64,000 nt of DNA from Candidatus Pacearchaeota archaeon (lineage in GTDB: Archaea > Nanobdellota > Nanobdellia > Pacearchaeales > JAPDKA01), in the NCBI GenBank assembly GCA_038890875.1, contig JAWAFA010000001.1, positions 258,617 through 322,616 on the forward strand, written 5' to 3'. The notes below the pieces were generated by a model. The model was not told where the DNA came from, made no database searches, and saw only the letters and a program-made list of their open reading frames with translations. Within the stretch, counting starts at the first letter, position 1; every line of letters begins with the position of its first letter. The position numbers and the translations under genes are program-made. Below, piece after piece: positions 8,116 through 38,060 of this stretch.

Positions 8116-9795
8116 TTATCTTTTGCGCTTTATTTTATATACCATTCTTACAATTTTGTAAATTATAATTGCAATAAAAATAGCTGTTAAAATTAACGTT
8201 GAATAGAAAATTTTTTGATAGGCATAAGGATAAACAGCCGGTTTTTCTGTTGGCAATACTTTTAAAATGAATGGAATCTCTTTAATTTCAATAGGGATTT
8301 TTTTATAAACAATCCTTGTATCATTAGCAATTATTCTTATCCAAAAGTCGTATGTTCCTTTTTTTATCTCTTTTTCACTACTAACATTTATTATTGTTTT
8401 TAACAAATTCTTTTTTTCTAAAAACTTCTTACTTACTACTTCCTGGCTTAGATTAAATAAACTTTCATTATCTCTTGGTTTTTCTATTAAAATTAATAAA
8501 TTCTGAAGATCTTGAAGAGGAACAAAATCAATTTCAATTTCAAATTGCTCTCCTTGGTAAATTTTTTTTGGAGCAAGTATGGTAAGTTCGTAACCTTCAA
8601 TCGCCACAGCCTCTTTAATTTCACAAGCTTTTATAACTTTCCGACCTAGAAAATAGGAGGGGCATTCGCAATAAATAAAAGAACTTTCCTGCCACCCACT
8701 GCATGCCCCGCTAATATCACAACTTCGAACAGCCCATTTTACTAACCGTGTTTCATTGAAAACAAGAATTTTCGGACTAGTTACATTACTTTCTATTACC
8801 CCCTCTAATTTAAATTCATCATAACAGGCCTGGCCTTCACTATCAAAATTTGCCGATTGCCATTCAAATCTTACCTCTTCGTTGCATACATTTTGTATTA
8901 CTGTTAAATTTGGTTTTGGGCAAGGCAAATTTTGTACACTGAAAGTATCAGTTGCCCAATCACTACATTGCCAAAAATCACAAGCACGAACTTTCCATTC
9001 ATGTAAGCCAAAGCTGAGTCCTTCAACAAGTTGAGGACTGGTTACATTTTCTCTAAGCTCAGAATCAATCATAAAGTCATAGCTTATAGGATCATTATCA
9101 GAGTCACTTGAATTTTGCCATTGTAACAGAACTGTATTATTGTTAGTATTTTGTTGGTCAATCAAAACAGGGGTAGTTGGTATAGAATTTAAAATTGTAA
9201 AGTTATCATAAGCGTCATCAGAACAGCATTGTGTATTGCAAGTCTTTACTTTCCATTCATGAAAACCTATAGCAAGATTGATTCTTGTTGCAGGACTTGT
9301 TATATTTTGCCAAATTCCATCTAGATAAAACATATCATAAGTTGGCAAGCCATTAGGATCTATTCCAGATGTCCAAGCAAAAGTAACATTATATGTTTTA
9401 TTCATAGGATGAAAATTGTTGACAGGTTGTAAAATAGGTACTGAAGGAGCCTCGCATAATGTTAAATTCAAACTTAAAACACCATATTCGTCCGCTTGCC
9501 CGATACCTCTTGCATAAAAGTTTCCTTTTTTGGCTTCAACCTCCCCATAGCTGTAAGGTTCGAGTGCAAGATTAGCTACAATATAATAACCATTATCTTG
9601 AGTCAACGTCTGTCGATTGCAATATTGTGAAGGTGCGGTACAGTTTATTATTAAAATATTAACAATTGCATTACTAGCATTAGTTCCATTAGAATAAAAA
9701 ACAAATCCATCAGCAACTCCGAGATAGATTTGTGCTTTTGCATTAATTAAGAGAATAAAAAAAGCTAAAATAGCAGCCAAAACTTCCTTTCTCAT
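8116..9795 (-). CDS. Surface protein with a signal peptide, repeated W/C-rich ~90-aa modules and a C-terminal TM anchor.
   Basis: N-terminal signal (AAILAFFILLINAKAQ). Repeated motifs HEWKVKTCNTQCCSD / HEWKVRACDFWQCSDW / VKWAVRSCDISGACSGW. C-terminal TM (LILTAIFIAIIIYKIV) plus a basic tail. Many NxS/T sequons. Confidence 0.5.
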   Translation of the reverse strand: MRKEVLAAILAFFILLINAKAQIYLGVADGFVFYSNGTNASNAIVNILIINCTAPSQYCNRQTLTQDNGYYIVANLALEPYSYGEVEAKKGNFYARGIGQADEYGVLSLNLTLCEAPSVPILQPVNNFHPMNKTYNVTFAWTSGIDPNGLPTYDMFYLDGIWQNITSPATRINLAIGFHEWKVKTCNTQCCSDDAYDNFTILNSIPTTPVLIDQQNTNNNTVLLQWQNSSDSDNDPISYDFMIDSELRENVTSPQLVEGLSFGLHEWKVRACDFWQCSDWATDTFSVQNLPCPKPNLTVIQNVCNEEVRFEWQSANFDSEGQACYDEFKLEGVIESNVTSPKILVFNETRLVKWAVRSCDISGACSGWQESSFIYCECPSYFLGRKVIKACEIKEAVAIEGYELTILAPKKIYQGEQFEIEIDFVPLQDLQNLLILIEKPRDNESLFNLSQEVVSKKFLEKKNLLKTIINVSSEKEIKKGTYDFWIRIIANDTRIVYKKIPIEIKEIPFILKVLPTEKPAVYPYAYQKIFYSTLILTAIFIAIIIYKIVRMVYKIKRKR

Positions 9796-10445
9796 TTTTT
9801 ATTCAATATAAGTTTACTTCTATTATAAATTAAAAGGTGTGGTTGAGTAGCCAGTATAAATTGTCCCTCTCCGACAAAAATTTCATCAAATGGATTTGAC
9901 TGAGCTAAAGGTGAATAAATTTCAAATTCTTGGCTTTGTTTGTTCCATTTCATCAAATATTTATGCAATGAGGCATTGAAATATTTTATTATGCTTGCAT
10001 TAAACTCGTAAGGCCAAGAGGGAGCATTCCAACCGGCATTCATACTTATTTCAAGATCACTGTTATTTGCTCCTCCAAAACCGATACTTGTCACATTATC
10101 AACTAATATAAAATAGGATTCATTTAAATTTGTTAAATTAAAAGGATTATCTAAAGCGCGCGGGCTATAAACTTGAAATTCTGTACCATTCCATTTAAGT
10201 ATATAACGAAAATTAGTTTGTTCATAGTTAAAAATCTCATTTATCGATCCAGTTTTGTTCGTACAAACTGAAACAAAATTCCATCCTGGAACAAGATCAG
10301 AACTGCATTTTGGAACAATAAAAAAAGAAAGCCAGCCATAAGCTACTGCCTTTGTCGTAATAATACTGGAAGTATCTAATGCACTAATTAAGGATAAATC
10401 AAGAAATAAGCATAAAGCAAAAGCAAATAAAAATTTTGATTTCAT
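9792..10445 (-). CDS. Secreted protein with an internal domain duplication.
   Basis: Signal peptide. Two homologous halves: YILKWNGTEFQVYSPRALDNPF vs YLMKWNKQSQEFEIYSPLAQSNPF. Translationally coupled (ATGA) to the upstream surface-protein gene. Confidence 0.45.
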   Translation of the reverse strand: MKSKFLFAFALCLFLDLSLISALDTSSIITTKAVAYGWLSFFIVPKCSSDLVPGWNFVSVCTNKTGSINEIFNYEQTNFRYILKWNGTEFQVYSPRALDNPFNLTNLNESYFILVDNVTSIGFGGANNSDLEISMNAGWNAPSWPYEFNASIIKYFNASLHKYLMKWNKQSQEFEIYSPLAQSNPFDEIFVGEGQFILATQPHLLIYNRSKLILNKK

Positions 10446-17529: not shown

Positions 17530-18645
17530 TTAGTGATAGTTAATTTTTATATCCTCTGGTTTTACCCCTTTAATTTCTATAGTTATGTTTCCGTATTTTA
17601 TTTTAAAAGTTTCATCGGTTTTGTTTTCAATTTTTGTTTCTATTTCTTTTATTTCCACTTTTTCTTGCTTAACCTCTTTTTTCCTTTCTCTTTTTTCTAA
17701 TGTTTGTTCTTTTTTCTTGTTAATCTTTTCAAGTGTTGTTTTTATTTCATCAAGTGAGGAGGCAATTTTTGAAATTTCAAATCCTTGTTTTTTAAGTCTC
17801 TCAAATTTTCTCTTGTAAATAGCTTCTACTTTTTCTTCAAGGGTAGCTTTTTCTCCAAGTTGACAATTTTTTGGTAGCAGAACTATTTGACCCTTTTTAA
17901 GGTACCCTCTTGTTATTTGTGGGTTTAATCTATTAATGAGATGATTATTACAAACTTTTCTAAGATTATATAAATCATTATTCGAGCTAGCATAATAGAT
18001 TTTAGCTTCTGAGAAGATGTCTTTGTCAGTTATTCTTTCTTCAATTTTCTTACATGAGTGAATTGTTTTTAAAATATTATTTATATAATTTCTAATAGTC
18101 TCTACTTTGTTTAACTTTCCAACTTTATCCTCTCCAGCAACATAAGCTACTAAAGCATCTTCTAGCCTCCTATATTTTTCTATCAAATCTCTTATTTCTT
18201 CAACTCCGGCAATGATGCTGAATGGCGAGAATCTCCAATCTTCATAATAGTTAATATTTAAGCCATGCCTCCTTGCAGTTGACTTCATAAGTTGCATTAC
18301 TCCAGCAGCCCATTTTGGGGAAAGTGCATAAGGATTTCCTTTTGATTCAACAAGAATCACTGCGGCAATAGTGCAAAAGTCAATCCCAAAGACATCAGCT
18401 GCAAAATCAATTATTTTTTTATATTCCTCTATATTACTTACCGCATCAATATAGCTTGAATAACAACTATTATCATTACAATAACTTTCAACTTCATTCG
18501 CTACTATTTTCACAATTTTGTTCCCACCAATGAGCCCCCCTCCCTCTAATCCATCCCCTTTAAAACTAGAAACGTTTATATTAAGCAGTGAAGAGAGTAT
18601 AAGAGTAGATAACAACTTTTTGTTATTTTTTATAATTTTTATCAT
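17530..18645 (-). CDS. Secreted lytic transglycosylase (Slt/family-1 SLT domain) with a Lys/Glu-rich coiled-coil C-terminus.
   Basis: Signal peptide. SLT motif I is VILVESKGNPYALSPKWAAGVMQLM (ES-GNP-A-S-AGA-G-MQLM). The C-terminal ~90 aa are a KE-rich coiled coil. Confidence 0.7.
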   Translation of the reverse strand: MIKIIKNNKKLLSTLILSSLLNINVSSFKGDGLEGGGLIGGNKIVKIVANEVESYCNDNSCYSSYIDAVSNIEEYKKIIDFAADVFGIDFCTIAAVILVESKGNPYALSPKWAAGVMQLMKSTARRHGLNINYYEDWRFSPFSIIAGVEEIRDLIEKYRRLEDALVAYVAGEDKVGKLNKVETIRNYINNILKTIHSCKKIEERITDKDIFSEAKIYYASSNNDLYNLRKVCNNHLINRLNPQITRGYLKKGQIVLLPKNCQLGEKATLEEKVEAIYKRKFERLKKQGFEISKIASSLDEIKTTLEKINKKKEQTLEKRERKKEVKQEKVEIKEIETKIENKTDETFKIKYGNITIEIKGVKPEDIKINYH

Positions 18646-18824: not shown

Positions 18825-19478
18825 TTATTTTTCAACTATAAACAGTTGTTTTTTCTTTAAAGCCCTTTCTATAATCTCTTTTTCCCTCTCGGTTACTATT
18901 GTATGATAAAAAATTGCATGTCCAAGGTTAACTGCCTTTCCTAAATTTTTAACATTTTTGAGGTATGCACTCGAAAGGTCTGCTCCCCAAAGGTCTGCTC
19001 CCCAAAGGTCTGCTCTCCAAAGGTATGCTCCCGAAAGGTCTGCTCCCGAAAGGCATGCTCTCCAAAGGTATGCTCCCGAAAGGTCTGCTCCCGAAAGGCA
19101 TGCTCTCCAAAGGTCTGCTCCCGAAAGGTCTGCTCCCAAAAGGTCTGCTCCCCAAAGGTTTGCTTCTTTTCCTCTAAAAAATGGTAAATAAAGATTTCTT
19201 GCCACAACACCTCGAAGCTTAGAATTATCCATGATTATAGGATCTAAATCAAGGTTAGCGTTTGTTAAATACTTTTGCAGTTCTTCAAAAGATTCATGAT
19301 CAGCAAGATTAAAACCTTCTTCTAATTCTATTCTAGAAAAATCCCTTTCTCCAGCTAAGATTTTTTTTACAAGTTCGTCTCCTTTCATTGGTATAAGTTG
19401 TGTTACCATATTAATTAAATAAAGATTAAGGTTTATAAATCTTTCGGTTCTTTGACTACTCTTAAGATACGACATCAA
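18825..19478 (-). CDS. Pentapeptide-repeat protein.
   Basis: About 17 consecutive A(D/N)L(S/W)GA pentapeptides (ANLWGADLLGADLSGADLWRACLSGADL...). Confidence 0.8.
   Translation of the reverse strand: MMSYLKSSQRTERFINLNLYLINMVTQLIPMKGDELVKKILAGERDFSRIELEEGFNLADHESFEELQKYLTNANLDLDPIIMDNSKLRGVVARNLYLPFFRGKEANLWGADLLGADLSGADLWRACLSGADLSGAYLWRACLSGADLSGAYLWRADLWGADLWGADLSSAYLKNVKNLGKAVNLGHAIFYHTIVTEREKEIIERALKKKQLFIVEK
18966..19170. repeat. Tandem ~15-bp direct repeat (aaaggtctgctcccc-type, ~13 copies) that encodes the pentapeptide repeats.
   Basis: Visible nucleotide periodicity of 15 bp with minor variants (ggtctgctcccc / ggcatgctctcc / ggtatgctcccg). It produces open frames in five of six frames, which are the ORF-track artefacts at 18941-19210. 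Confidence 0.8.
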
Positions 19479-19829: not shown

Positions 19830-20609
19830 CTAATTGCTCGGCGGCGCTTTCGCTATTTTCCATAGAACCTCAAATTGTTTTATATAAAGGTCAGCTACCT
19901 CTTCACTTTCAATTCTTATAACCAATGGTTTTAATGTAAAAATAAAATAAATAATTTTGTTTCCATAAATAGAATGAACAACTTTATTGTTGAAATATTC
20001 TTTAGGTAAAATTTTAACTTTTACATATGGGTGTTTTGTAATTGATTTTCCTTCTGCAAATAATTGTCTTGAAAAAATTTTGTATTTTTCTCTTAAATTC
20101 CAAAATCTTTTCCATATATATTCAGGAACTTGTTTAATAAATTCTTCTTTTGAAAATGAATTCATTACAAGAATTTCTTTATATTTTCGTTCAATTCCAT
20201 CTTTAATTATATCATTCAAAATATACCTTATTCCTTCTATTCCCTCATAAACTTCAACTTTTGATGTTGTTATTATTTCTTTTTCTTTTAAATCTGCTAT
20301 TTTTTCCTTCAATCTTTGTTTTTGTTTTTCCAGGTATTCTTCCTTTGCCTCTAAAATATTAATCAAATTATTGGGGTCAGTTATTCTAAACAGCTTTATC
20401 TTTCCCTTTATTATATAATTTATCAAGCCTTTTCCTAACAAAGAATTTAAAGAATCATAAACATGGGCTCTTGATATTGTTGTATATCTTGCAATATCAT
20501 AAGCTTTTGCTTCCTTTAATTTCAAGAGGATAAGATAAACTTCAGCCTCATTATTTGTCAATCCCAATTCAATTAAATCCGCTTTTTGTAGCATATTATT
20601 ATTAAACAC
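19830..20609 (-). CDS. TrmB-family transcriptional regulator.
   Basis: N-terminal HTH: LGLTNNEAEVYLILLKLKEAKAYDIARYTTISRAHVYDSLNSLLGKGLI. Full TrmB-like length (259 aa) with a C-terminal effector domain. Divergent from the rSAM gene. Confidence 0.7.
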   Translation of the reverse strand: MFNNNMLQKADLIELGLTNNEAEVYLILLKLKEAKAYDIARYTTISRAHVYDSLNSLLGKGLINYIIKGKIKLFRITDPNNLINILEAKEEYLEKQKQRLKEKIADLKEKEIITTSKVEVYEGIEGIRYILNDIIKDGIERKYKEILVMNSFSKEEFIKQVPEYIWKRFWNLREKYKIFSRQLFAEGKSITKHPYVKVKILPKEYFNNKVVHSIYGNKIIYFIFTLKPLVIRIESEEVADLYIKQFEVLWKIAKAPPSN

Positions 20610-20734: not shown

Positions 20735-22114
20735 ATGAGAATGGAATCAAAATTACAAAAATCACAGAACCAGTCAGAATCACAAATTTATCAAAAAAAC
20801 ATAAAGGCTTATCCGCAGGATGCACAGTCTGTATTTAATTATCACAAATTACCAACCATACCATTAAAAGACTCTTACTTAATTTATTCTCCTTTTGCTA
20901 GAGAATTTGCTTTAATAAAAAGACATTTACTAAATGAAAAAATACTTTTGAGAAAACTAAAAAAGAGGGGTTTTTTTAATTCAAACCCTTTTCCTCAAGA
21001 AAAAAATACGCTTAAGGTTGGTTTAATAACTACTACTGCTTGTAATCAAAAATGTGCCTACTGCGCTACTTGCGCTGAATTTATAGGAAATAAAAAGATT
21101 TATTCAAAAAAACTTTTTATGGATGAAGACGCCGTTATTTTAACTTTAGATAAATTGCTTAAAAAGTATAAAATAGAAGCGATTAATTTTATGGGCGGGG
21201 AACCTACTTTAAATATGCCTATTATAAAAAAAGTCATAGATTTAATAAATAATAAAAGTAAAAAGACACTATTCTCTATTCAAACAAATGGAGTAATTAA
21301 TAAAGAAGATTTGAATTATCTAATTAGTAAGGGAATCGTTTTCTCGATTTCATGGGATGGAATAGAAAATGATAAATTTAGAGCTTCATCTAAAATTATA
21401 AAGAAAAATATATTAAAACTTGTAAAAAAAGGGGCCTTATTCAAAATTCGTATGACTGTTGGAAAGTGGAATTCAAGCAATATCATAAAGTCTATTAGAT
21501 GGCTTTTAAAAAATGGTGTTAAGTTTATACAACTTGAACCGATGTTACCGGAAGGAAGGGGAAGCAAATTATCTGATCAAAGTTTAACCCCTCAAGAATT
21601 TAAAACAATTTTCTTTAATACCTTAAAAATTGTGGAGAAGAAAAAATGTTTTTTAATAAATTATGCCTTTGCAAATCTTTTTTCACCTAAGCTCTTTTTT
21701 TGTGATTCTGCAGCAGGCAAAAAAATTATATTGAATGCAGACGGAAGTATCTCTTCATGTTACAAAGTCCAAAGAAGAAAAGACCCTCTTTCAGAAAATT
21801 TTATAATTGGGGAATATAATTTTAAAAAAATCAAATTTAAAAAATCAAATTTTAATGTAAATTCTTATCCAACATGTAAGAAATGTGCTTTTTATTACCT
21901 GTGTTCTGGTGCCTGTCCATTTGAAAATATAAAATCTAATGAAGGAGTGGACAAATATTTATGCGACTTAAGAAGTTCTTTATTGATGAGCGGTATTCTT
22001 CATTTGTATAGTTGTAAATTAAAGAAAAATATGTGTAGTTTAGAAGGTCTTTATATTATGGGAAGAATTGCCATGAAAAGAAAATATGATCGTTTGCCAA
22101 ATTTTATGATTTAA
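20735..22114 (+). CDS. Radical SAM enzyme with a C-terminal SPASM/twitch Cys-rich domain and a ~90-aa N-terminal extension.
   Basis: CxxxCxxC radical-SAM motif (TTTACNQKCAYCATC). Auxiliary cluster cysteines follow (CDSAAGK...SSCYK...CKKCAFYYLCSGACPF). Confidence 0.8.
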   Translation: MRMESKLQKSQNQSESQIYQKNIKAYPQDAQSVFNYHKLPTIPLKDSYLIYSPFAREFALIKRHLLNEKILLRKLKKRGFFNSNPFPQEKNTLKVGLITTTACNQKCAYCATCAEFIGNKKIYSKKLFMDEDAVILTLDKLLKKYKIEAINFMGGEPTLNMPIIKKVIDLINNKSKKTLFSIQTNGVINKEDLNYLISKGIVFSISWDGIENDKFRASSKIIKKNILKLVKKGALFKIRMTVGKWNSSNIIKSIRWLLKNGVKFIQLEPMLPEGRGSKLSDQSLTPQEFKTIFFNTLKIVEKKKCFLINYAFANLFSPKLFFCDSAAGKKIILNADGSISSCYKVQRRKDPLSENFIIGEYNFKKIKFKKSNFNVNSYPTCKKCAFYYLCSGACPFENIKSNEGVDKYLCDLRSSLLMSGILHLYSCKLKKNMCSLEGLYIMGRIAMKRKYDRLPNFMI

Positions 22115-25781: not shown

Positions 25782-26507
25782 TTATAGTAATTTCCAGATT
25801 AATTCAAATATTTTTTTTTGAGTTTGCGCAATATCTTTATTTTTTATTATAACTCCAATTAATTTTTCTTTGTTCATTGTTAGAAACGCTACGTTTTCAT
25901 TATAAATATAAGTCATTGTGTTTATTTTTATTTCTTTTGGAAGAAATTTGGTTTTAGTATAGGTTTTATTTCTTAATTTAAGTTCTTTATTAATTTTGTC
26001 CGTTTTTTCTTGTATTATTCTACAAAATATTTTTTCTTTTATTCTCTTTTCACTCCAGTGAGGAAAATAAAATTCCAAGGTTTTAAATATTTCATCACAT
26101 TCTATTACTAGAATTTCTTCGGGCTTTATTTTTAATATATTTTCTAATATTGTTTTTATTCCTTCAACTCCTTCATAAATTTCTATTTCTGGTTTTTCTT
26201 CTACTGTCTTTTTTATTTGCTCTAATTTTGGAATTATAGATTTAATAGTATTTAATTTTTCTTCTTCTATTTTTAAAACTCTTTTTGGATCAACTGCCTC
26301 AAAATATCTAGTTCCTGATTTGATAGTATAAAAAACAAGTCCTTTTTTTAATAAAGAATTCAAAATACTATAAATTGTTGTCCTAGGAAGATTTAATCTT
26401 TTTGATATTTCATTAACTTTAGAATTACCTAATTTTAATAATTCTATATAGATCTCTGCTTCTTTATCATTTAGTCCTATTTTTTTTAAAGCATATTTTT
26501 CTTCCAT
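25782..26507 (-). CDS. TrmB-family transcriptional regulator, paralogous to the one at 19830-20609.
   Basis: HTH IGLNDKEAEIYIELLKLGNSKVNEISKRLNLPRTTIYSILNSLLKKGLV. Divergently oriented to the three-gene unknown cluster. Confidence 0.65.
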   Translation of the reverse strand: MEEKYALKKIGLNDKEAEIYIELLKLGNSKVNEISKRLNLPRTTIYSILNSLLKKGLVFYTIKSGTRYFEAVDPKRVLKIEEEKLNTIKSIIPKLEQIKKTVEEKPEIEIYEGVEGIKTILENILKIKPEEILVIECDEIFKTLEFYFPHWSEKRIKEKIFCRIIQEKTDKINKELKLRNKTYTKTKFLPKEIKINTMTYIYNENVAFLTMNKEKLIGVIIKNKDIAQTQKKIFELIWKLL

Positions 26508-26756
26508 TTTATTATAATTTTTTCTTTTTTATAAATCTTTTTTATAGTCCATTTTTGACAACAAAAATATAAATAATACAACTACTAAGGAGAGAGTATA
26601 AGAGATTAAAGAAAATGACAAAGGAAAAATATGAAAAAGAAAAAAGATATGTAGAAAGTTATGAAGATTTAGCAAAATATCCTTCATTGTCAGAAGGAAA
26701 GAATGAATTAGAAATCATGTTCAACAAAATAAATCGAACACGACGCGATGAAGTAA

Positions 26757-27650
26757 ATGGAGGGGGTGGAGAAAATGGAATTTGAAAAAATAATTTTGCA
26801 AAAACCAAAAAGAGAAAATTTACCTGAAATGCCAGAGTTAGTTAAACAATATTGTGATTTAAAAAGTTATAAGCCTGCTGGAAAGGTTTTTAGCATAGAA
26901 ATTAAACATAAGAGTAGGGATTCAAAAACAGACGGCATGGCTTATTTCAATGAGCTAGTAGTGAATAAAGAAAATAAAGTAGTCTATAGTAGTGGAATGA
27001 TGAAATATAGAGGAGCTTATAACTGGGAAATTGATAATCACGACACCCAGTTGTTTGATCCTTCAATTTTAGAAGAAAAAAGTAATGAAGTAGTATTTGG
27101 ATTAAGAACTGGTGCAGGAAACATAAAAATATACAGATTAAAGGGAAATGAACTAAAAGAACTTTACACCTTTGACATCGATGGTTATAGGAAAAAGAAG
27201 AAAAGAAATGAATTAATTAAAAAGATTCTTGAAGATCCAGATGAATGGGTGAAGTACATTGAAAATGAGCAAGGGCATCATTGGTATATTGATTCTTCGA
27301 GAATGCGTGATTTGAAAAATGAAAAAGAAAAGGGAAATGAATGGAGGGACGATTACCAAATTCTTGATGACGGAAATTTGATTATAGCACTAGCGAAACA
27401 TTACGATAGAGACTATGATCCTATCGTAGATTGTTATTATGTGTACTTTTGGAAAAAAAGGGTTGGTATGGCAAAATCAAAAACTTACTATACAGGACTT
27501 TGCCACCCTTGGGGAAAATTTTATATAATTGAGGTTAGATTTTTAGAACCAGCATCTTATGATAAAGATAAACAGATAGTTATAGCAAAAATAGGAAATA
27601 AGGGGCAAAACAAAGTAATAGAACACAAATTTAAGTTAGAAGAAAAATAA
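26757..27650 (+). CDS. Hypothetical cytoplasmic protein (cluster gene 1). The true start is probably the ATG at 26775, after a GGAGGGGGTGG SD.
   Basis: 297 aa with no signal peptide or TM and no recognisable motif. Shares a conserved upstream leader with the next gene. Confidence 0.45.
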   Translation: MEGVEKMEFEKIILQKPKRENLPEMPELVKQYCDLKSYKPAGKVFSIEIKHKSRDSKTDGMAYFNELVVNKENKVVYSSGMMKYRGAYNWEIDNHDTQLFDPSILEEKSNEVVFGLRTGAGNIKIYRLKGNELKELYTFDIDGYRKKKKRNELIKKILEDPDEWVKYIENEQGHHWYIDSSRMRDLKNEKEKGNEWRDDYQILDDGNLIIALAKHYDRDYDPIVDCYYVYFWKKRVGMAKSKTYYTGLCHPWGKFYIIEVRFLEPASYDKDKQIVIAKIGNKGQNKVIEHKFKLEEK

Positions 27651-27736
27651 GGAGTTAGAAAATTGAAAGAAGTATAATAACAAAAACAAAAGCCAATCGA
27701 GCACGACGCGATGAAGTAAATGGAGAGGTGAAGAAA

Positions 27737-28519
27737 ATGAAAAATTTCGAAAAGTATGTGGAAGAAGCGAAAGAAGGGAAGAAAATGATAATATATGTGT
27801 CTGACTCGTGTTATTCTGATATCCGTATTCCTCTTGAATATTATAAGTCTAAACTAGAAAGAATGATTTCACTTGATCAGTATACTGAAGATATTGCTAG
27901 TTTTCTATTGCTAATAGATAATGAAAGGACTTTGAGAGGTATTGTACAAGACTATTTATGCGAGTTTGGAAAAGATGAGTTTGGCTTAGTAGAAGCACTA
28001 AAGAAGTTAGTTCCAGAAAAAGATGAAAAATCATCTAAAGTTCTTTTGTATCATGGTCTTTGCAGTGAGTTTAGAAAAGGATTAAAAAAAGAAGAACTAA
28101 AAAAACTTGGAATAGAATATGCCGTAGATTTTCATCATTATCCAGACAATCCATTTGCATACGAATTAGAAGAAACTATAAAAAGTTTGGATTCGAAAAA
28201 ATATGATAACTTAATGAAAGTGATAAATGACACAAAGAAAAGAGAAGAAGAAATTTTGAAACAAGTAAATGAAAAGATTCCTATAAAGTATACAAGTGAT
28301 TTTATTAAAGTAGGAGAGTTTCTAAAAGAGTTAGATTTATCAAAGCAACATTTTTGTTTAAATTATATCATAGGAAAAATCACTGATACAGATTATATGA
28401 GAGGATTCATTTATCTTGGTGCTGGAGAATTAGATGCAGCTAAAAAAATGGCAGACATGACAAACTCTGCCTTTAATAAAGAATGGTTATTAAAAGAAAT
28501 CGAAAAACGAAAAAAGTGA
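27737..28519 (+). CDS. Hypothetical cytoplasmic protein (cluster gene 2).
   Basis: The ORF track uses the GTG at 27728. The ATG at 27737 lies 8 nt after a GGAGAGGTGA SD. No recognisable domain. Confidence 0.45.
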   Translation: MKNFEKYVEEAKEGKKMIIYVSDSCYSDIRIPLEYYKSKLERMISLDQYTEDIASFLLLIDNERTLRGIVQDYLCEFGKDEFGLVEALKKLVPEKDEKSSKVLLYHGLCSEFRKGLKKEELKKLGIEYAVDFHHYPDNPFAYELEETIKSLDSKKYDNLMKVINDTKKREEEILKQVNEKIPIKYTSDFIKVGEFLKELDLSKQHFCLNYIIGKITDTDYMRGFIYLGAGELDAAKKMADMTNSAFNKEWLLKEIEKRKK

Positions 28520-28540
28520 ACGAATGGGTGGTTGAAGAAA

Positions 28541-29209
28541 ATGACAAAACCACTGGAAATATTGGTTGTGGAAGATGGTGTTGAAAATTTAGAAAATTGT
28601 AAAAAAGCATATGAACCACTGATGAAAGAGGGGCTCATTATACCTTATTACGCCACTAATTACAAAGAAGCAGAGCCTTTAATTGATAAAGTGAATGCAG
28701 GAATTTTAGATCTTTATTTTCCAGCAGAAAATGGGGAAGAGATGATCAAAGAATTTGCTAGAAAATACGATAGAGGTAGTGGGTTTCCTAAAGAAGTAAA
28801 AGCTAATGATATGTATCCTATGGGCCTAATCATTGCTGATAAACTTGCTGAACAAGGAAAACCATCAATATTTGTAAGTCCAATTGCTAGTGGCCATGGA
28901 TCACATAACAATCCATTTTATCCATTGAGATATGCTATAGATAGTGAAAAAATACCTAAAGAAATAAAAATAGCATGGTCTGCTTGTGAGAATCCATACA
29001 GTTTTGAGGAATATGGCAGTCCTACATTTGTATCTTATATGTTAAGAGTAGATTCACAATGGTTTAGAGATTACATAGAAAAGATACCAGAAGTATGGCT
29101 TGCTTCTGTTAAAGCAATAGCCGCACTCTTAAAAAGAGAAGATATTTACAATAAAATAAAAGTTGATAAACTTGTAGAAAAAAATATAGAGGAATTTTAT
29201 AAAAAATAG
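28541..29209 (+). CDS. Hypothetical protein whose N-terminus looks like a response-regulator receiver domain (cluster gene 3).
   Basis: LEILVVEDGVENLENCKKAYEPLMKEGLII...AGILDLYFPAENGEEMIKEF was aligned by eye to the REC pattern (acidic pair, a phosphoacceptor-position Asp in ILDL, then a ...P..G.E helix). The C-terminal ~130 aa are unknown. The ORF track uses the TTG at 28532. Confidence 0.4.
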   Translation: MTKPLEILVVEDGVENLENCKKAYEPLMKEGLIIPYYATNYKEAEPLIDKVNAGILDLYFPAENGEEMIKEFARKYDRGSGFPKEVKANDMYPMGLIIADKLAEQGKPSIFVSPIASGHGSHNNPFYPLRYAIDSEKIPKEIKIAWSACENPYSFEEYGSPTFVSYMLRVDSQWFRDYIEKIPEVWLASVKAIAALLKREDIYNKIKVDKLVEKNIEEFYKK

Positions 29210-31442: not shown

Positions 31443-32411
31443 ATGAAAAACCATCTTAAAAAAATAATCAATTTTTTGCTTGCCTCAAGTATTTTTTTTA
31501 CTTATACTGCCGCAGCCGTACCTAAATCAGTTGAGTCGATCAAACCTATCCCAAAAGAAATTAAGGACATCTCTATGTATCAGGAATGGCTTGATCGATA
31601 TGAATTGAATAATTATAATTATTCAAGTGAAAATTTTTATTCTTGTTTTCAGAGAATGGAAAAATATAGGAATATAATAGAAAAAGCAGCAAAAGAGTCA
31701 AGATTGCCTGTTTGCGAGTTAGAAGCTTTAATAGCGATTGAATCTTGCGGTTTGTTAAAAGCACATTCAAAAGCTGGAGCAAGTGGACCAGCACAATTAA
31801 TGTATGGAAAAGCTAAAGAATTTGGAATAAAAATAACTAGTACTGAAGATTGGAGATATAGTGTAGATTCGATTTTTCCAGCGGCTAAATATTTCGCAAA
31901 GGTGAAAAAAAATTATGGATTGGAGAATGCACTAATAGCTTATAATGCTGGTGAGAGTAAAGCTAACAACATTAATCATCTTGAAGAGTGGGAAGATAAG
32001 AGGGATTATATACCATATGAAACACAAAAGTATGTTCCAAGATTTATGAATGCGGCTGTCCAATGCCTTGAATATGAAGAAGAGAGAAAAAATCATGTAA
32101 AAATAGCTCAAAAAGGAGATACATTATGGAAAATAGCTAAAGAATGTAAAAGTAATGTAGAAAAAATAAAAAAAATTAATGGAATTTCCGGTAAAAAGAT
32201 ATTCTCTGGGCAAAAAATAGTGTGCAGTGAAGATTATTTTGACATATTTGCTAAAGCAACCTTTTATACTGTTAAAACAAATGATACTATGGCAAAGATA
32301 GCTAGAAAATATGGAATTTCACCAGAGCTGTTAAAATATCTAAATCCACAGATAAAAAAATTTTCCAACTTAACTCCAGGAATGAAAATAAGAATAATAA
32401 AAAGTGAATAA
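31443..32411 (+). CDS. Secreted lytic transglycosylase (SLT domain) with two C-terminal LysM domains.
   Basis: Signal peptide. SLT motif IAIESCGLLKAHSKAGASGPAQLM with a downstream AYNAG. LysM 1 is VKIAQKGDTLWKIAKECKSNVEKIKKINGI. LysM 2 is YTVKTNDTMAKIARKYGISPELLKYLNP. Confidence 0.75.
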   Translation: MKNHLKKIINFLLASSIFFTYTAAAVPKSVESIKPIPKEIKDISMYQEWLDRYELNNYNYSSENFYSCFQRMEKYRNIIEKAAKESRLPVCELEALIAIESCGLLKAHSKAGASGPAQLMYGKAKEFGIKITSTEDWRYSVDSIFPAAKYFAKVKKNYGLENALIAYNAGESKANNINHLEEWEDKRDYIPYETQKYVPRFMNAAVQCLEYEEERKNHVKIAQKGDTLWKIAKECKSNVEKIKKINGISGKKIFSGQKIVCSEDYFDIFAKATFYTVKTNDTMAKIARKYGISPELLKYLNPQIKKFSNLTPGMKIRIIKSE

Positions 32412-36815: not shown

Positions 36816-38060
36816 TTACATTTTCTTTACTATCCTTTCGACATCACTATCCATCCCCTTTTTTTTATAATATTCAATAACTTTCTGGTATAACTCTCTA
36901 GCTTTTTCGATCATGCCAGCATCGTTGGCCATATCAGCTATTTTTTCATAGTTTTCAATAACTTTCTTATACAACTCTTCAACCTTCTCTTCCATACCAT
37001 ATTCACTCGCTAATTTGAAGGCATTATCAAACATCCCCGCTTTTTCATAAATCTCGACAGCCTTTTCACCCATTTTTGCCTCAATTGCAATTCTTACAGC
37101 ATCATCAATCCTTCCTTTTTTCTCATAATCTTCAATAGCCTCCTTATACAACTCTTTTGCTTTTTCTTCATTTCCCTTCTCTTTAGCTAATCTAGCAGCA
37201 ACATCTTTAAATCCTGCTTCTTCATAATCCTTAATTGCTCTCTCTATCATATTAGCTTCAAGAGCTATCTTTGCAGCATAAACAAACATTCCTTTTTTCT
37301 CATAATCTTCAATAGCCTCCTTATACAACTCTTTTGCTTTTTCTTCATTTCCCTTCTCTTTAGCTAATCTAGCAGCAACATCTTTAAATCCTGCTTCTTC
37401 ATAATCCTTAATTGCTCTCTCTATCATATTAGCTTCAAGAGCTATCTTTGCAGCATAAACAAACATTCCTTTTTTCTCATAATCTTCAATAGCTTTAAGA
37501 TAAAATTGCTGAGCTATACCTTTAATACCTGCCTCAAGAGCTATCTTTGCAGCCTCATAAAACCTCTTTTTGTCCTTATACCCCTCAATAACTTTCTTAT
37601 ATAACTCTTCAGCCTTATCCTTCATACCATGCTCACTAGCAACTTTAGCAGCAATATAAGTTAACCCTGCTTTTTCATAAATCTCGACAGCCTTTTCACC
37701 CATTTTTGCCTCAATTGCAATTCTTACAGCATCATCAATCCTTCCTTTTTTCTCATAATCTTCAATAGCCTTTAGATACAACTCTTTTGCTTTTTCTTTC
37801 ATCTCAATTTTACTTGCTATCTTTGCACTATCATAAAACTTCCCTTTACTTTCATAATACTTAATAACTACTTGATAGAGTTTTTTAGCTATTTCTTTCA
37901 TCCCTAAATTAAGAGCAATAGTAGCGGCTTCTTCGCAATCTTTAATAATTTCCGCACGTAACTTTTCGGCTCTCTCAGTCATCCCTATTGAAAGCGCAAA
38001 TTTAACTGATTTTTCACGTTCTTTAATAGATTTAAGCATTTGCTCTAGGTCGGCTTTCAT
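36816..38060 (-). CDS. Alpha-helical tandem-repeat protein (~38-aa Sel1/TPR-like units).
   Basis: Repeats of A.KIA.EA.M.E.A...YEKAG...AA.LA.E.G.EEKA.ELYK.AIEDYEKKG, with two 59-aa blocks that are identical at the protein level. Confidence 0.55.
   Translation of the reverse strand: MKADLEQMLKSIKEREKSVKFALSIGMTERAEKLRAEIIKDCEEAATIALNLGMKEIAKKLYQVVIKYYESKGKFYDSAKIASKIEMKEKAKELYLKAIEDYEKKGRIDDAVRIAIEAKMGEKAVEIYEKAGLTYIAAKVASEHGMKDKAEELYKKVIEGYKDKKRFYEAAKIALEAGIKGIAQQFYLKAIEDYEKKGMFVYAAKIALEANMIERAIKDYEEAGFKDVAARLAKEKGNEEKAKELYKEAIEDYEKKGMFVYAAKIALEANMIERAIKDYEEAGFKDVAARLAKEKGNEEKAKELYKEAIEDYEKKGRIDDAVRIAIEAKMGEKAVEIYEKAGMFDNAFKLASEYGMEEKVEELYKKVIENYEKIADMANDAGMIEKARELYQKVIEYYKKKGMDSDVERIVKKM
37140..37495. 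repeat. Near-perfect tandem duplication (~177-bp unit x2) within the helical-repeat gene.
   Basis: The sequence ...ttcaatagcctccttatacaactcttttgctttttcttcatttcccttctctttagctaatctagcagcaacatctttaaatcctgc... recurs identically starting ~177 bp later. Confidence 0.8.

Follow-up and report, generated by a model that had tools for sequence, protein, structure and literature searches.

Shine-Dalgarno (SD) regions of leadered or operon-internal archaeal genes are marked by a GGAGG/GGTGA core 5–8 nt from the ATG, an A-rich unstructured spacer, and a position directly behind an upstream stop codon, in a geometry of translational coupling. Here we describe a ~47-nt repeated element with these same features in a 64-kb stretch of DNA (hereafter the window, which the profile and motif scans of the element cover) from a Candidatus Pacearchaeota archaeon, contig JAWAFA010000001.1, where it lies just before two unrelated genes (gene 1 and gene 2) of an operon divergent from a TrmB-family regulator. 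It differs from the described SD regions in having an extra invariant 18-nt GC-rich block, in being repeated near-identically before unrelated genes, and in belonging to a genome without an SD at ~90% of the starts examined. With slightly better than even confidence, we read the repeat as a portable 5′ leader, or intercistronic translation-initiation element, of one accessory operon family in a narrow DPANN clade, spread by recombination.

Further described systems share parts of this picture. L7Ae binds k-turns in archaeal 5′ untranslated regions (UTRs) that adjoin the SD, and these RNAs stay unfolded as long as the protein is absent (Daume et al. 2017, PMC5539422; Huang et al. 2019, PMC6298567). 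The element resembles these leaders, known from l7ae and other archaeal mRNAs, in its predicted short 5′ UTR within a leaderless-rich archaeon, its GAU bulge plus GA with a second GA strand nearby, its adjacent SD, and an RNA that appears unstructured without protein; it differs in its minimal flanking helices without covariation, in preceding accessory genes and not l7ae, and in being known from sequence only. TrmB-family operators follow the pattern TACT-N3-AGTA in Thermococcales and TACT-N7-8-GAGTA in Halobacterium (review PMC4158304), and the window holds one palindrome of the second type, distinct from the repeated element.

The Repeated Element in the Window

An exact 22-mer, CGACGCGATGAAGTAAATGGAG, occurs twice in the window (26741–26762 and 27704–27725; none expected from 100 shuffles), and the repeat search extends the pair to 34 nt at 94% identity (26732–26765 versus 27695–27728); the length of ~47 nt is reached once the SD region and ATG are counted. 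An nhmmer profile built from six element copies recovers two copies in the window, namely copy 1 (W1; 26731–26777, forward strand, E 3.9e-13) and copy 2 (W2; 27692–27739, forward strand, E 4.2e-15). The two near-identical leaders that a preliminary description of the locus had placed before gene 1 and gene 2 are thus real, while its suggested search for further copies brings no third one within the window. In W1, the invariant block occupies 26736–26753, with a mini open reading frame (mini-ORF) ATG AAG TAA at 26748–26756, the SD sequence GGAGGGGGTGGAG, and the ATG of gene 1 at 26775. In W2, the block occupies 27699–27716, with mini-ORFs at 27711–27719 and 27720–27731, the SD sequence GGAGAGGTGA, and an ATG at 27737. 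The 40-nt leader RNA reads GAGCACGACGCGAUGAAGUAAAUGGAGGGGUGAAGAAAAUG.

A related element had also been claimed before gene 3, and here the claim holds for one half only. Junction 3 (28519–28543, forward strand), which abuts the stop codon of gene 2, carries the SD/start half (GAATGGGTGGTTGAAGAAAATG; 81% over 26 nt, repeat D17) and not the GC-rich half, and it is not significant on its own in the nhmmer profile search of the window (E = 13). The codons 5′ of this junction (KEIEKRKK*) form the native end of the gene 2 protein, which its homologue P0015 conserves. A decayed 5′ half of the element had been considered at the end of gene 2 (IEKRKK*), a reading dropped because this 44% identical homologue shows KEIEKR to be the native C-terminus. 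Nor did the element itself hold up as protein-coding: frame 1 opens into genes in some copies, yet lacks a start codon, and frame 2 (IEHDAMK*) is a real C-terminus only in a gene of a relative, the REC211 gene described below.

Element Copies in Related Genomes

The shared cis-element proposed in the preliminary description recurs in relatives upstream of different genes, with a total of seven distinct copies in four genomes before seven different downstream genes. The closest relative with the same element, JAWCLW01 (contiguous loci L001 and L002; filed as Candidatus Aenigmatarchaeota), has copy RA before the receiver-like REC211, copy RB before the unrelated geneX, where it overlaps the REC211 stop, and copy RC before a DVHGD-motif protein, followed by a degenerate fourth copy (AATCGAGCACGATGCAGAGGGG) at L002 2078–2121. 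In a third species group (L016, L017, L029–L031), a full copy precedes a stand-alone homologue of gene 3 (L016/L029A), and L029–L031 have a second copy (L029B) 6.85 kb away before an unrelated 125-aa gene. The seven downstream genes are therefore gene 1 and gene 2 of the window, REC211, geneX and the DVHGD protein of JAWCLW01, the gene 3 homologue, and the 125-aa gene. Aligned, the seven copies share the 18-nt block GA[R]CAC[R]ACGCGATGAAG, unchanged in 7/7 except at the two R positions and followed by either of two SD-region subtypes, and their placement just 5′ of start codons is constant.

The two copies in L029–L031 form a 103-nt direct repeat, 100% identical, which comprises a TATA box (TTATAAAA) and the leader, ends at GATGAAG, and is divergent beyond that point. 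These repeats (L029 9876–9978 and 16726–16828, likewise in L030 and L031) flank 6.85 kb of housekeeping genes, including TBP, aEF-2, S7, S12, and Ogg, and the contig ends and a scaffold gap of L029–L031 are located at them.

Absence from the homologous loci of relatives was named in the preliminary description as grounds against a shared cis-element. The element is present in the close relatives above, and its GC-rich block is absent from the more distant homologous loci L014, L015, L018, and L019–L022, of which L018 is a distant archaeal relative that serves as an outgroup and L019–L021 are Candidate Phyla Radiation (CPR) loci, L020 being from Falkowbacteria. In L018, where gene 1 is found at 52% identity, the junctions carry only AGGAGGTTAAAGAAAAATG, and the GC-rich part aligns as a ~31-nt insertion relative to them; for this reason, the SD half would be ancestral to the operon family and the GC-rich half a lineage-specific addition. 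The region upstream of the JAWCLW01 homologue of gene 1 (80% aa identity) is likewise without the GC-rich part. A scan of a genome collection with a 20-mer returned only JAWCLW01, a scan of JGI metagenomes with a 19-mer gave nine matches, all by chance and inside unrelated coding DNA, and two scans of viral contigs gave none in one and five chance matches in GC-rich phages in the other.

We also noted that the CPR module in L020 has a repeated upstream segment of its own (ctcaagttaataattattgattattgatttaagaaaa; ~9470–9530 and ~10095–10155) before two different ORFs, and repeated 5′ regions may be a general trait of the module.

Translation Signals, Promoters, and Leader Structure

An SD was counted where a purine-rich core matching GGAGGTGA lies 4–10 nt 5′ of a start codon, and all three junctions of the operon have one: GGTGGAG in W1, GAGGTGA in W2, and GGTGG at junction 3, each 5–8 nt before the ATG, as in all copies of the relatives. 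Such motifs are seen at 6/64 of the gene starts in the window, three of the six within this module, and TATA-like boxes peak 29 nt 5′ of the start codons across the same 64 starts. The position of this peak and the rarity of SD motifs together point to a genome that is largely leaderless. The 3′ half of the element would on our reading act as a strong SD initiation region (GGAGG/GGTGA, A-rich spacer, ATG), giving the module SD-dependent initiation in an otherwise mostly leaderless genome.

A TATA-like box is found 24–32 nt upstream of the invariant block in three contexts (W2/RA, RC, and L016/L029), which puts the predicted start of transcription at the 5′ edge of the GC-rich block or only a few nucleotides from it. 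For copy 2, the box (TATAATAA, 27673–27680) lies in the intergenic segment 27651–27691 (forward strand), and counting 29 nt from the first base of the box gives a predicted start near 27700–27704, at the 5′ boundary of the block. Where a TATA-like box is present, the element would then be a complete, unstructured 5′ UTR of ~37 nt with the block as its first part; in W1 and RB, it would act instead as an intercistronic junction. We infer an action at the level of RNA, by which the element would drive or co-ordinate translation, with the block as a sequence-specific binding site.

These TATA-like boxes could also be set in a different frame, with the block as a DNA operator over the transcription start and its copies as a transcriptional regulon of the adjacent TrmB, an Lrp-type regulator, or another protein. 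The block covers the predicted start in the same three contexts, the classic position of an archaeal repressor, and it was duplicated together with its promoter in L029. Yet the block is not palindromic, the neighbouring regulator differs (TrmB in the window, a tandem Lrp/AsnC type in JAWCLW01), W1 and RB fall within the 3′ ends of coding sequences and have no TATA box, the distance of the element is constant to the start codon and not to the TATA box, and a better TrmB-type site is found at 26583–26598; we see only a small chance that this explanation is correct.

The preliminary description had proposed a fold or covariance test for leader structure, and no structure emerged. The six copies fold no better than shuffles (minimum free energy, MFE, −0.6 to −5.9 kcal/mol; z −0.9 to +1.2), the alignment fold of the element has two pairs with 0 covariation, Rfam has no match over the element at the gathering threshold or at E up to 10, and the repeat search found no inverted repeat spanning it. 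These results effectively refute a structured cis-regulatory RNA, such as a riboswitch or thermometer, which a GC-rich segment adjoining start codons in an AT-rich genome might otherwise bring to mind. A box C/D sRNA overlapping the element was also considered and set aside, since it would lack both a box D and any conserved downstream part.

An RNA that is unstructured alone could still be folded by a protein. In this alternative, L7Ae or another k-turn-binding protein would recognise the invariant block as a K-loop or k-turn-like RNA site, fold the leader, occlude the SD 10–15 nt downstream, and repress translation of the module genes jointly. The GA would be the non-bulged strand, followed by a 9-nt loop with two possible G-C pairs, and the GAUGA would supply a 3-nt GAU bulge plus G·A/A·G pairs. 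The pattern GA-N9-GAUGA is the exact minimal block invariant in 7/7 copies, with similarity beginning at the GA and ending after GATGAAG in L029B, and the two nucleotides before the GA vary (TC, AT, CA) while the GA is kept; the leader is unstructured alone, the SD site is adjacent, and the strict pattern occurs only 6 times in 128 kb (both strands). This pattern was, however, defined post hoc, and the copies share one ancestor, which makes them one observation. The C-helix has at most 2 bp (G-C, C-G), one of them lost in W1 (A·C); the non-canonical helix, itself weak, varies from copy to copy (A·C/G·U, A-U/G·A, A·A/G-C) and shows no clear covariation; and no L7Ae gene was found in the window. 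We regard this alternative as unlikely. Somewhat more doubtful still is the wider proposition that a K-loop-type RNA operator, or other sequence-specific protein site in the portable leader, lets a general RNA-binding protein such as L7Ae control translation of the whole recombining module; if true, the module (TrmB, β-propeller-like protein, and atypical receiver), common to DPANN archaea and CPR bacteria, would be a regulon controlled post-transcriptionally and propagated through copies of its own leader.

Decoy ATGs followed by a stop, another feature of the preliminary description, are present at each junction: ATG AAG TAA at 26748–26756 and 27711–27719, ATG GAG AGG TGA at 27720–27731, and ATG GGT GGT TGA at 28524–28535. 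It is conceivable that ATG AAG opens a functional tiny upstream ORF (uORF), read as MK-stop in most copies, extended to 10 codons in L016, and sharing the frame of the downstream gene in L029B, and that the main start is reached by termination-reinitiation. ATGAAG is invariant in all copies, five copies have the TAA immediately followed by an ATG, and the second mini-ORF has its stop codon 5 nt ahead of the main ATG or sharing bases with it (ATGA), all in a host adapted to leaderless initiation. Length, frame, and stop position are nonetheless not conserved among the copies, the ATG AAG TAA of RB is the end of the REC211 gene, and the AUG-proximal 5′ end is a prediction only, which together leave a functional uORF very unlikely.

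Recombination at the Element

The portable leader that we favour would be copied before unrelated genes by recombination, and the direct repeats so made would mediate deletion and swapping of genes between copies. Copy 2 bears the clearest traces of such exchange. Its left flank (27651–27698, the 48 nt left of the invariant block, for which JAWCLW01 has the orthologous spacer) is identical to RA at 47/48 positions versus 28/48 for RB, while its right flank (the first 36 nt of coding sequence) is identical to RB at 33/36 versus 22–26/36 for RA. W2 is, on this basis, a recombinant of the two. The order gene 1, REC211, geneX is found consecutively in L018, so the layout of the window is explained by deletion of REC211 through recombination between two element copies.

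The exchange extends into the coding sequence. Gene 2 opens with 11 codons (MKNFEKYVEEA) that in relatives encode the N-terminus of the unrelated geneX, and the body of gene 2 is fused in frame behind them. The preliminary description had named a recently duplicated 5′ gene fragment as the finding that would undo a shared cis-element; this is borne out in part, in that copy 2 brings along these 11 codons of geneX. In a further locus, L013, a chimeric receiver gene (832–903) begins like gene 3 of the window (MTKPLEILVVEDGVEN) and continues like REC211 of JAWCLW01 (RKAAQQYF), which by its sequence is further evidence of recombination, here between paralogues. Taken together, the W2 chimera, the fusion of gene 2 with geneX, and the L013 chimera describe a locus that is a mosaic, evolving by homologous exchange at short conserved segments. 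The breakpoints vary, some falling inside the element, some 33 nt into the coding sequence, and one in the N-terminus of a receiver gene.

Repeats between genes that come and go are also seen in integron attC arrays, in which unrelated co-oriented genes are parted by a recurring element and gene content varies among close relatives. The repeats could on this analogy be site-specific recombination sites of an integron-like cassette array, since the genes here are unrelated, on the same strand, and mostly promoterless with a repeated element between them, and gene content differs between close relatives. The element repeats are however direct, with no attC hairpin of imperfect inverted repeats (R''-L''/L'-R') or other inverted-repeat potential and fold energies equal to those of shuffles; no integrase or recombinase family is seen among the Pfam-assigned ORFs examined (17.5–34.9 kb); the variable, homology-driven breakpoints fit homologous and not site-specific recombination; and the element sits 5′ of each gene and holds its ribosome-binding site. 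We therefore disfavour an integron-like array, which seems scarcely credible here.

Conservation of the Element: Selection or Recent Copying

How much of the likeness among copies reflects constraint was weighed against synonymous divergence (dS and dN/dS are Nei–Gojobori estimates throughout). Over the 87 nt of spacer and element that follow gene 1, the window and JAWCLW01 have 3 differences, where ~9 would be expected on the basis of the 3′ part of gene 1, in which synonymous divergence is reduced (dS ~0.10 near that end, versus 0.21 overall). The L016 copy, before the gene 3 homologue, differs from W2 at ~2/29 core positions, with a dS of 0.40 for gene 3. We take this as a modest sign of constraint on the block.

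Several points weigh against the portable initiation element. The similarity of the copies could stem from recent duplication, gene conversion, or transfer between close relatives and not from selection, and the 100% identity of the 103-nt duplicate in L029 suggests that the copying was recent. Only a few hot-spring metagenome-assembled genomes, closely related to one another, have the element. The placement of transcription starts is a prediction from TATA-like boxes only, W1 and RB have no suitably placed box, and neither a 16S rRNA gene nor its anti-SD sequence was found in the window.

The first of these points can be carried further, to a GC-rich block with no function of its own: a hitch-hiking scar of an ancestral promoter, leader, or first codons, recently duplicated with the SD region and homogenised by gene conversion and transfer between close relatives. 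The very narrow distribution, the identical L029–L031 duplicate as a mark of recent copying, the degenerate copy in JAWCLW01 (L002 2078–2121), a gene 1 homologue in a relative that works without the block, and the mosaic locus with its chimeric genes all speak for such a scar. It is harder to reconcile with an 18-nt block of ~60% GC that stays constant in seven copies and four genomes of ~30% GC, with flanks that have fully diverged while neighbouring genes show dS of 0.2–0.4, and with conservation boundaries that are sharp and identical in independent contexts. A scar is, on balance, a serious possibility, if a rather unlikely one.

The TrmB Regulator, Its Putative Operator, and the Module

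The operon lies divergent from a TrmB-family winged-helix regulator (241 aa; 25782–26507, reverse strand), an assignment made in the preliminary description and confirmed by PF01978 (72.4 bits, cut-off 25.6, residues 7–75). The NCBIfam equivalogs score far below their cut-offs (TrmBL1 53 bits versus 650; TrmB 33.5 bits versus 600), with only the N-terminal ~145 residues aligning, and these profiles give no detectable sugar-binding-domain match to characterised TrmB or TrmBL1. A TATA-like box (ATATAAATAA; 26568–26577, forward strand), read from the sequence as the probable operon promoter, lies 47 nt 5′ of a small ORF, a distance that implies a short 5′ UTR. Between the two lies the palindrome TACTAAGGAGAGAGTA (26583–26598, forward strand), a candidate TrmB operator and the sole TACT-N7-8-GAGTA match in the window (0.6 expected). 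As in described TrmB-family operators, it sits 3′ of the TATA-like box, in the repressor position; what sets this locus apart is that the palindrome is distinct from the repeated element and that the regulator lacks the sugar-binding-domain match mentioned above. The equivalent position in L018, between TATA box and small ORF, reads TACTTTTAAGTA. In L020, the TACT...AGTA sites fall in coding DNA and lend no support to an operator there. This palindrome, and not the repeated element, is probably the likelier TrmB operator, and transcriptional control by TrmB would accordingly be exerted at a site separate from the leader.

The small ORF (56 aa; 26615–26785, forward strand), which the preliminary description had seen running through the first leader, is a conserved gene that takes its final 19 codons from element copy 1; W1, which overlaps the ORF at its 3′ end, lies within the predicted transcript. 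Its homologue in L018 (48–59 aa) occupies the same position beside the divergent TrmB, with 11/27 residues identical (pairwise E 4e-5). That protein ends before the SD site, and the tail of the window ORF is therefore supplied by the element. A programmed frameshift joining the small ORF to gene 1 was rejected, the L018 small ORF being a separate gene that ends before the SD site.

The proposal of an accessory module under a divergent TrmB is supported by the recurrence of the layout, in full in L018 and in part in L020. L018 has a divergent TrmB (36% identity, E 1e-22), the small ORF, receiver-like genes, a gene 1 homologue, and geneX. L020 has a gene 1 homologue (33% identity), a receiver-like protein with the same His-rich motif as gene 3 and its paralogues, and a TrmB (30% over 246 aa, E 2.5e-29). 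The window, which contains an archaeal RNase P RNA and four tRNAs, has ~30% GC, and encodes proteins on record for hot-spring metagenome-assembled genomes of Candidatus Pacearchaeota, shows no anomaly of base composition along the locus. A mobile or viral origin of the module was looked for in base composition, in viral relatives of gene 1 or gene 3, and in PADLOC/PHROG searches, and found no support, with no composition anomaly, no such relatives, and matches absent or insignificant.

A gene pair repeatedly flanks the module in relatives (L001 3581–4968, L018 5490–7398, L029 8546–9803), comprising a 213-aa protein with an R-x5-H (HEPN-like) motif, present as a 60-aa fragment in L029, and a 249-aa nucleotidyltransferase-like protein. 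Elsewhere in the window, a second TrmB-family paralogue (19830–20609, reverse strand) is divergent from a radical-SAM gene (20735–22114, forward strand), the same layout as at the studied locus.

Proteins Encoded by the Operon

The three proteins had been described as non-homologous and cytoplasmic, and our results agree: they are mutually dissimilar (all pairwise BLASTP E > 3) and none has a hydrophobic segment (Kyte-Doolittle 19-residue mean, maximum 1.18). They had also been called unannotatable, which stands for gene 2 as an orphan and falls for gene 1, with its β-propeller-like blades, and for gene 3, a probable divergent receiver. Gene 1 (291 aa; 26775–27650, forward strand) is β-rich and the anchor of the module. 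Homologues of gene 1 at 75–78% aa identity also occur in a bacterial-looking context in L014 (1–105 and 983–1060) and L015 (120–232), both short contigs, with a perfect TTGACA-17-TATAAT, an 11-bp hairpin leader, and an AGGAGGT SD on the 5′ side and a GC hairpin plus T-run on the 3′ side.

Gene 2 (260 aa; 27737–28519, forward strand), which NCBI starts at the ATG at 27785 (244 aa), has no family match, and its only homologues among 1.8–5.8 billion proteins are P0011 (92%) and P0015 (44%).

Gene 3 (222 aa; 28541–29209, forward strand) appears to be an atypical CheY-like receiver with an insertion after β3 and a helical C-terminal part. The receiver-like N-terminus noted in the preliminary description is supported indirectly. 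Gene 3 alone has no Pfam match at E up to 0.1, and its 81% homologue P0013 reaches 17.3 bits against PF00072, below the gathering cut-off of 30.2, while paralogues in relatives lie above it (38.0 and 34.4 bits); hhalign links the gene 3 profile to this paralogue group at 97.2% probability (E 3.4e-11). An AlphaFold2 model from a 3-sequence alignment (pLDDT, predicted local distance difference test, 76.5) predicts only four strands, and its top 50 Foldseek matches in the PDB are mostly receiver domains (probability up to 0.99, best E 2.8e-3). E11, D12, and D57, the equivalents of the CheY D12, D13, and D57 pocket, are present and invariant in the 3-sequence alignment. Gene 3 appears to share with the CheY-like receivers (PF00072) the β1-α1-β2-α2-β3 half, with the acidic pocket, and its top structural matches are mostly response regulators. 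It differs from them in that only the N-terminal half matches the profile, in the large insertion after β3, in a His-rich motif after β4 common to gene 3 and its paralogues (SGHGSH, SLFHHH or SNHH), and in that no histidine kinase partner and no recognisable output domain are seen.

The dN/dS values of 0.46 for gene 1, ~1 for gene 2 (with very few changes), and 0.26 for gene 3 indicate relaxed constraint rather than demonstrated positive selection; an earlier rough value near 0.9, which had raised positive selection as a candidate, was not upheld by these estimates.

Implications and Other Features of the Window

DPANN archaea are uncultivated and the control of gene expression in them is almost uncharted, and this locus presents SD-led genes within a leaderless genome together with a short, sharply bounded, testable cis-element. 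It also records direct-repeat-mediated loss and swapping of genes between close relatives. The set of TrmB, β-propeller-like protein, and atypical receiver crosses the boundary between archaea and bacteria, in two groups of ultra-small symbionts, and hints at a shared accessory function. A lineage-specific portable leader or junction in a recombining accessory operon is a modest and not a revolutionary finding, which does not overturn current understanding and yields a defined element and protein trio for experiments.

Outside the operon, the window encodes two SLT-domain lytic transglycosylases (17530–18645, reverse strand, and 31443–32411, forward strand), one with two LysM domains; in an archaeon, such peptidoglycan-directed enzymes are possibly aimed at a bacterial partner. 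A pentapeptide-repeat protein (18825–19478, reverse strand) contains a 15/45-nt tandem DNA repeat at 18961–19164 (12.7 or 4.5 copies), and a 177-nt tandem repeat at 37097–37493 (2.2 copies, 98% identical) lies within the ORF at 36816–38060 (reverse strand).

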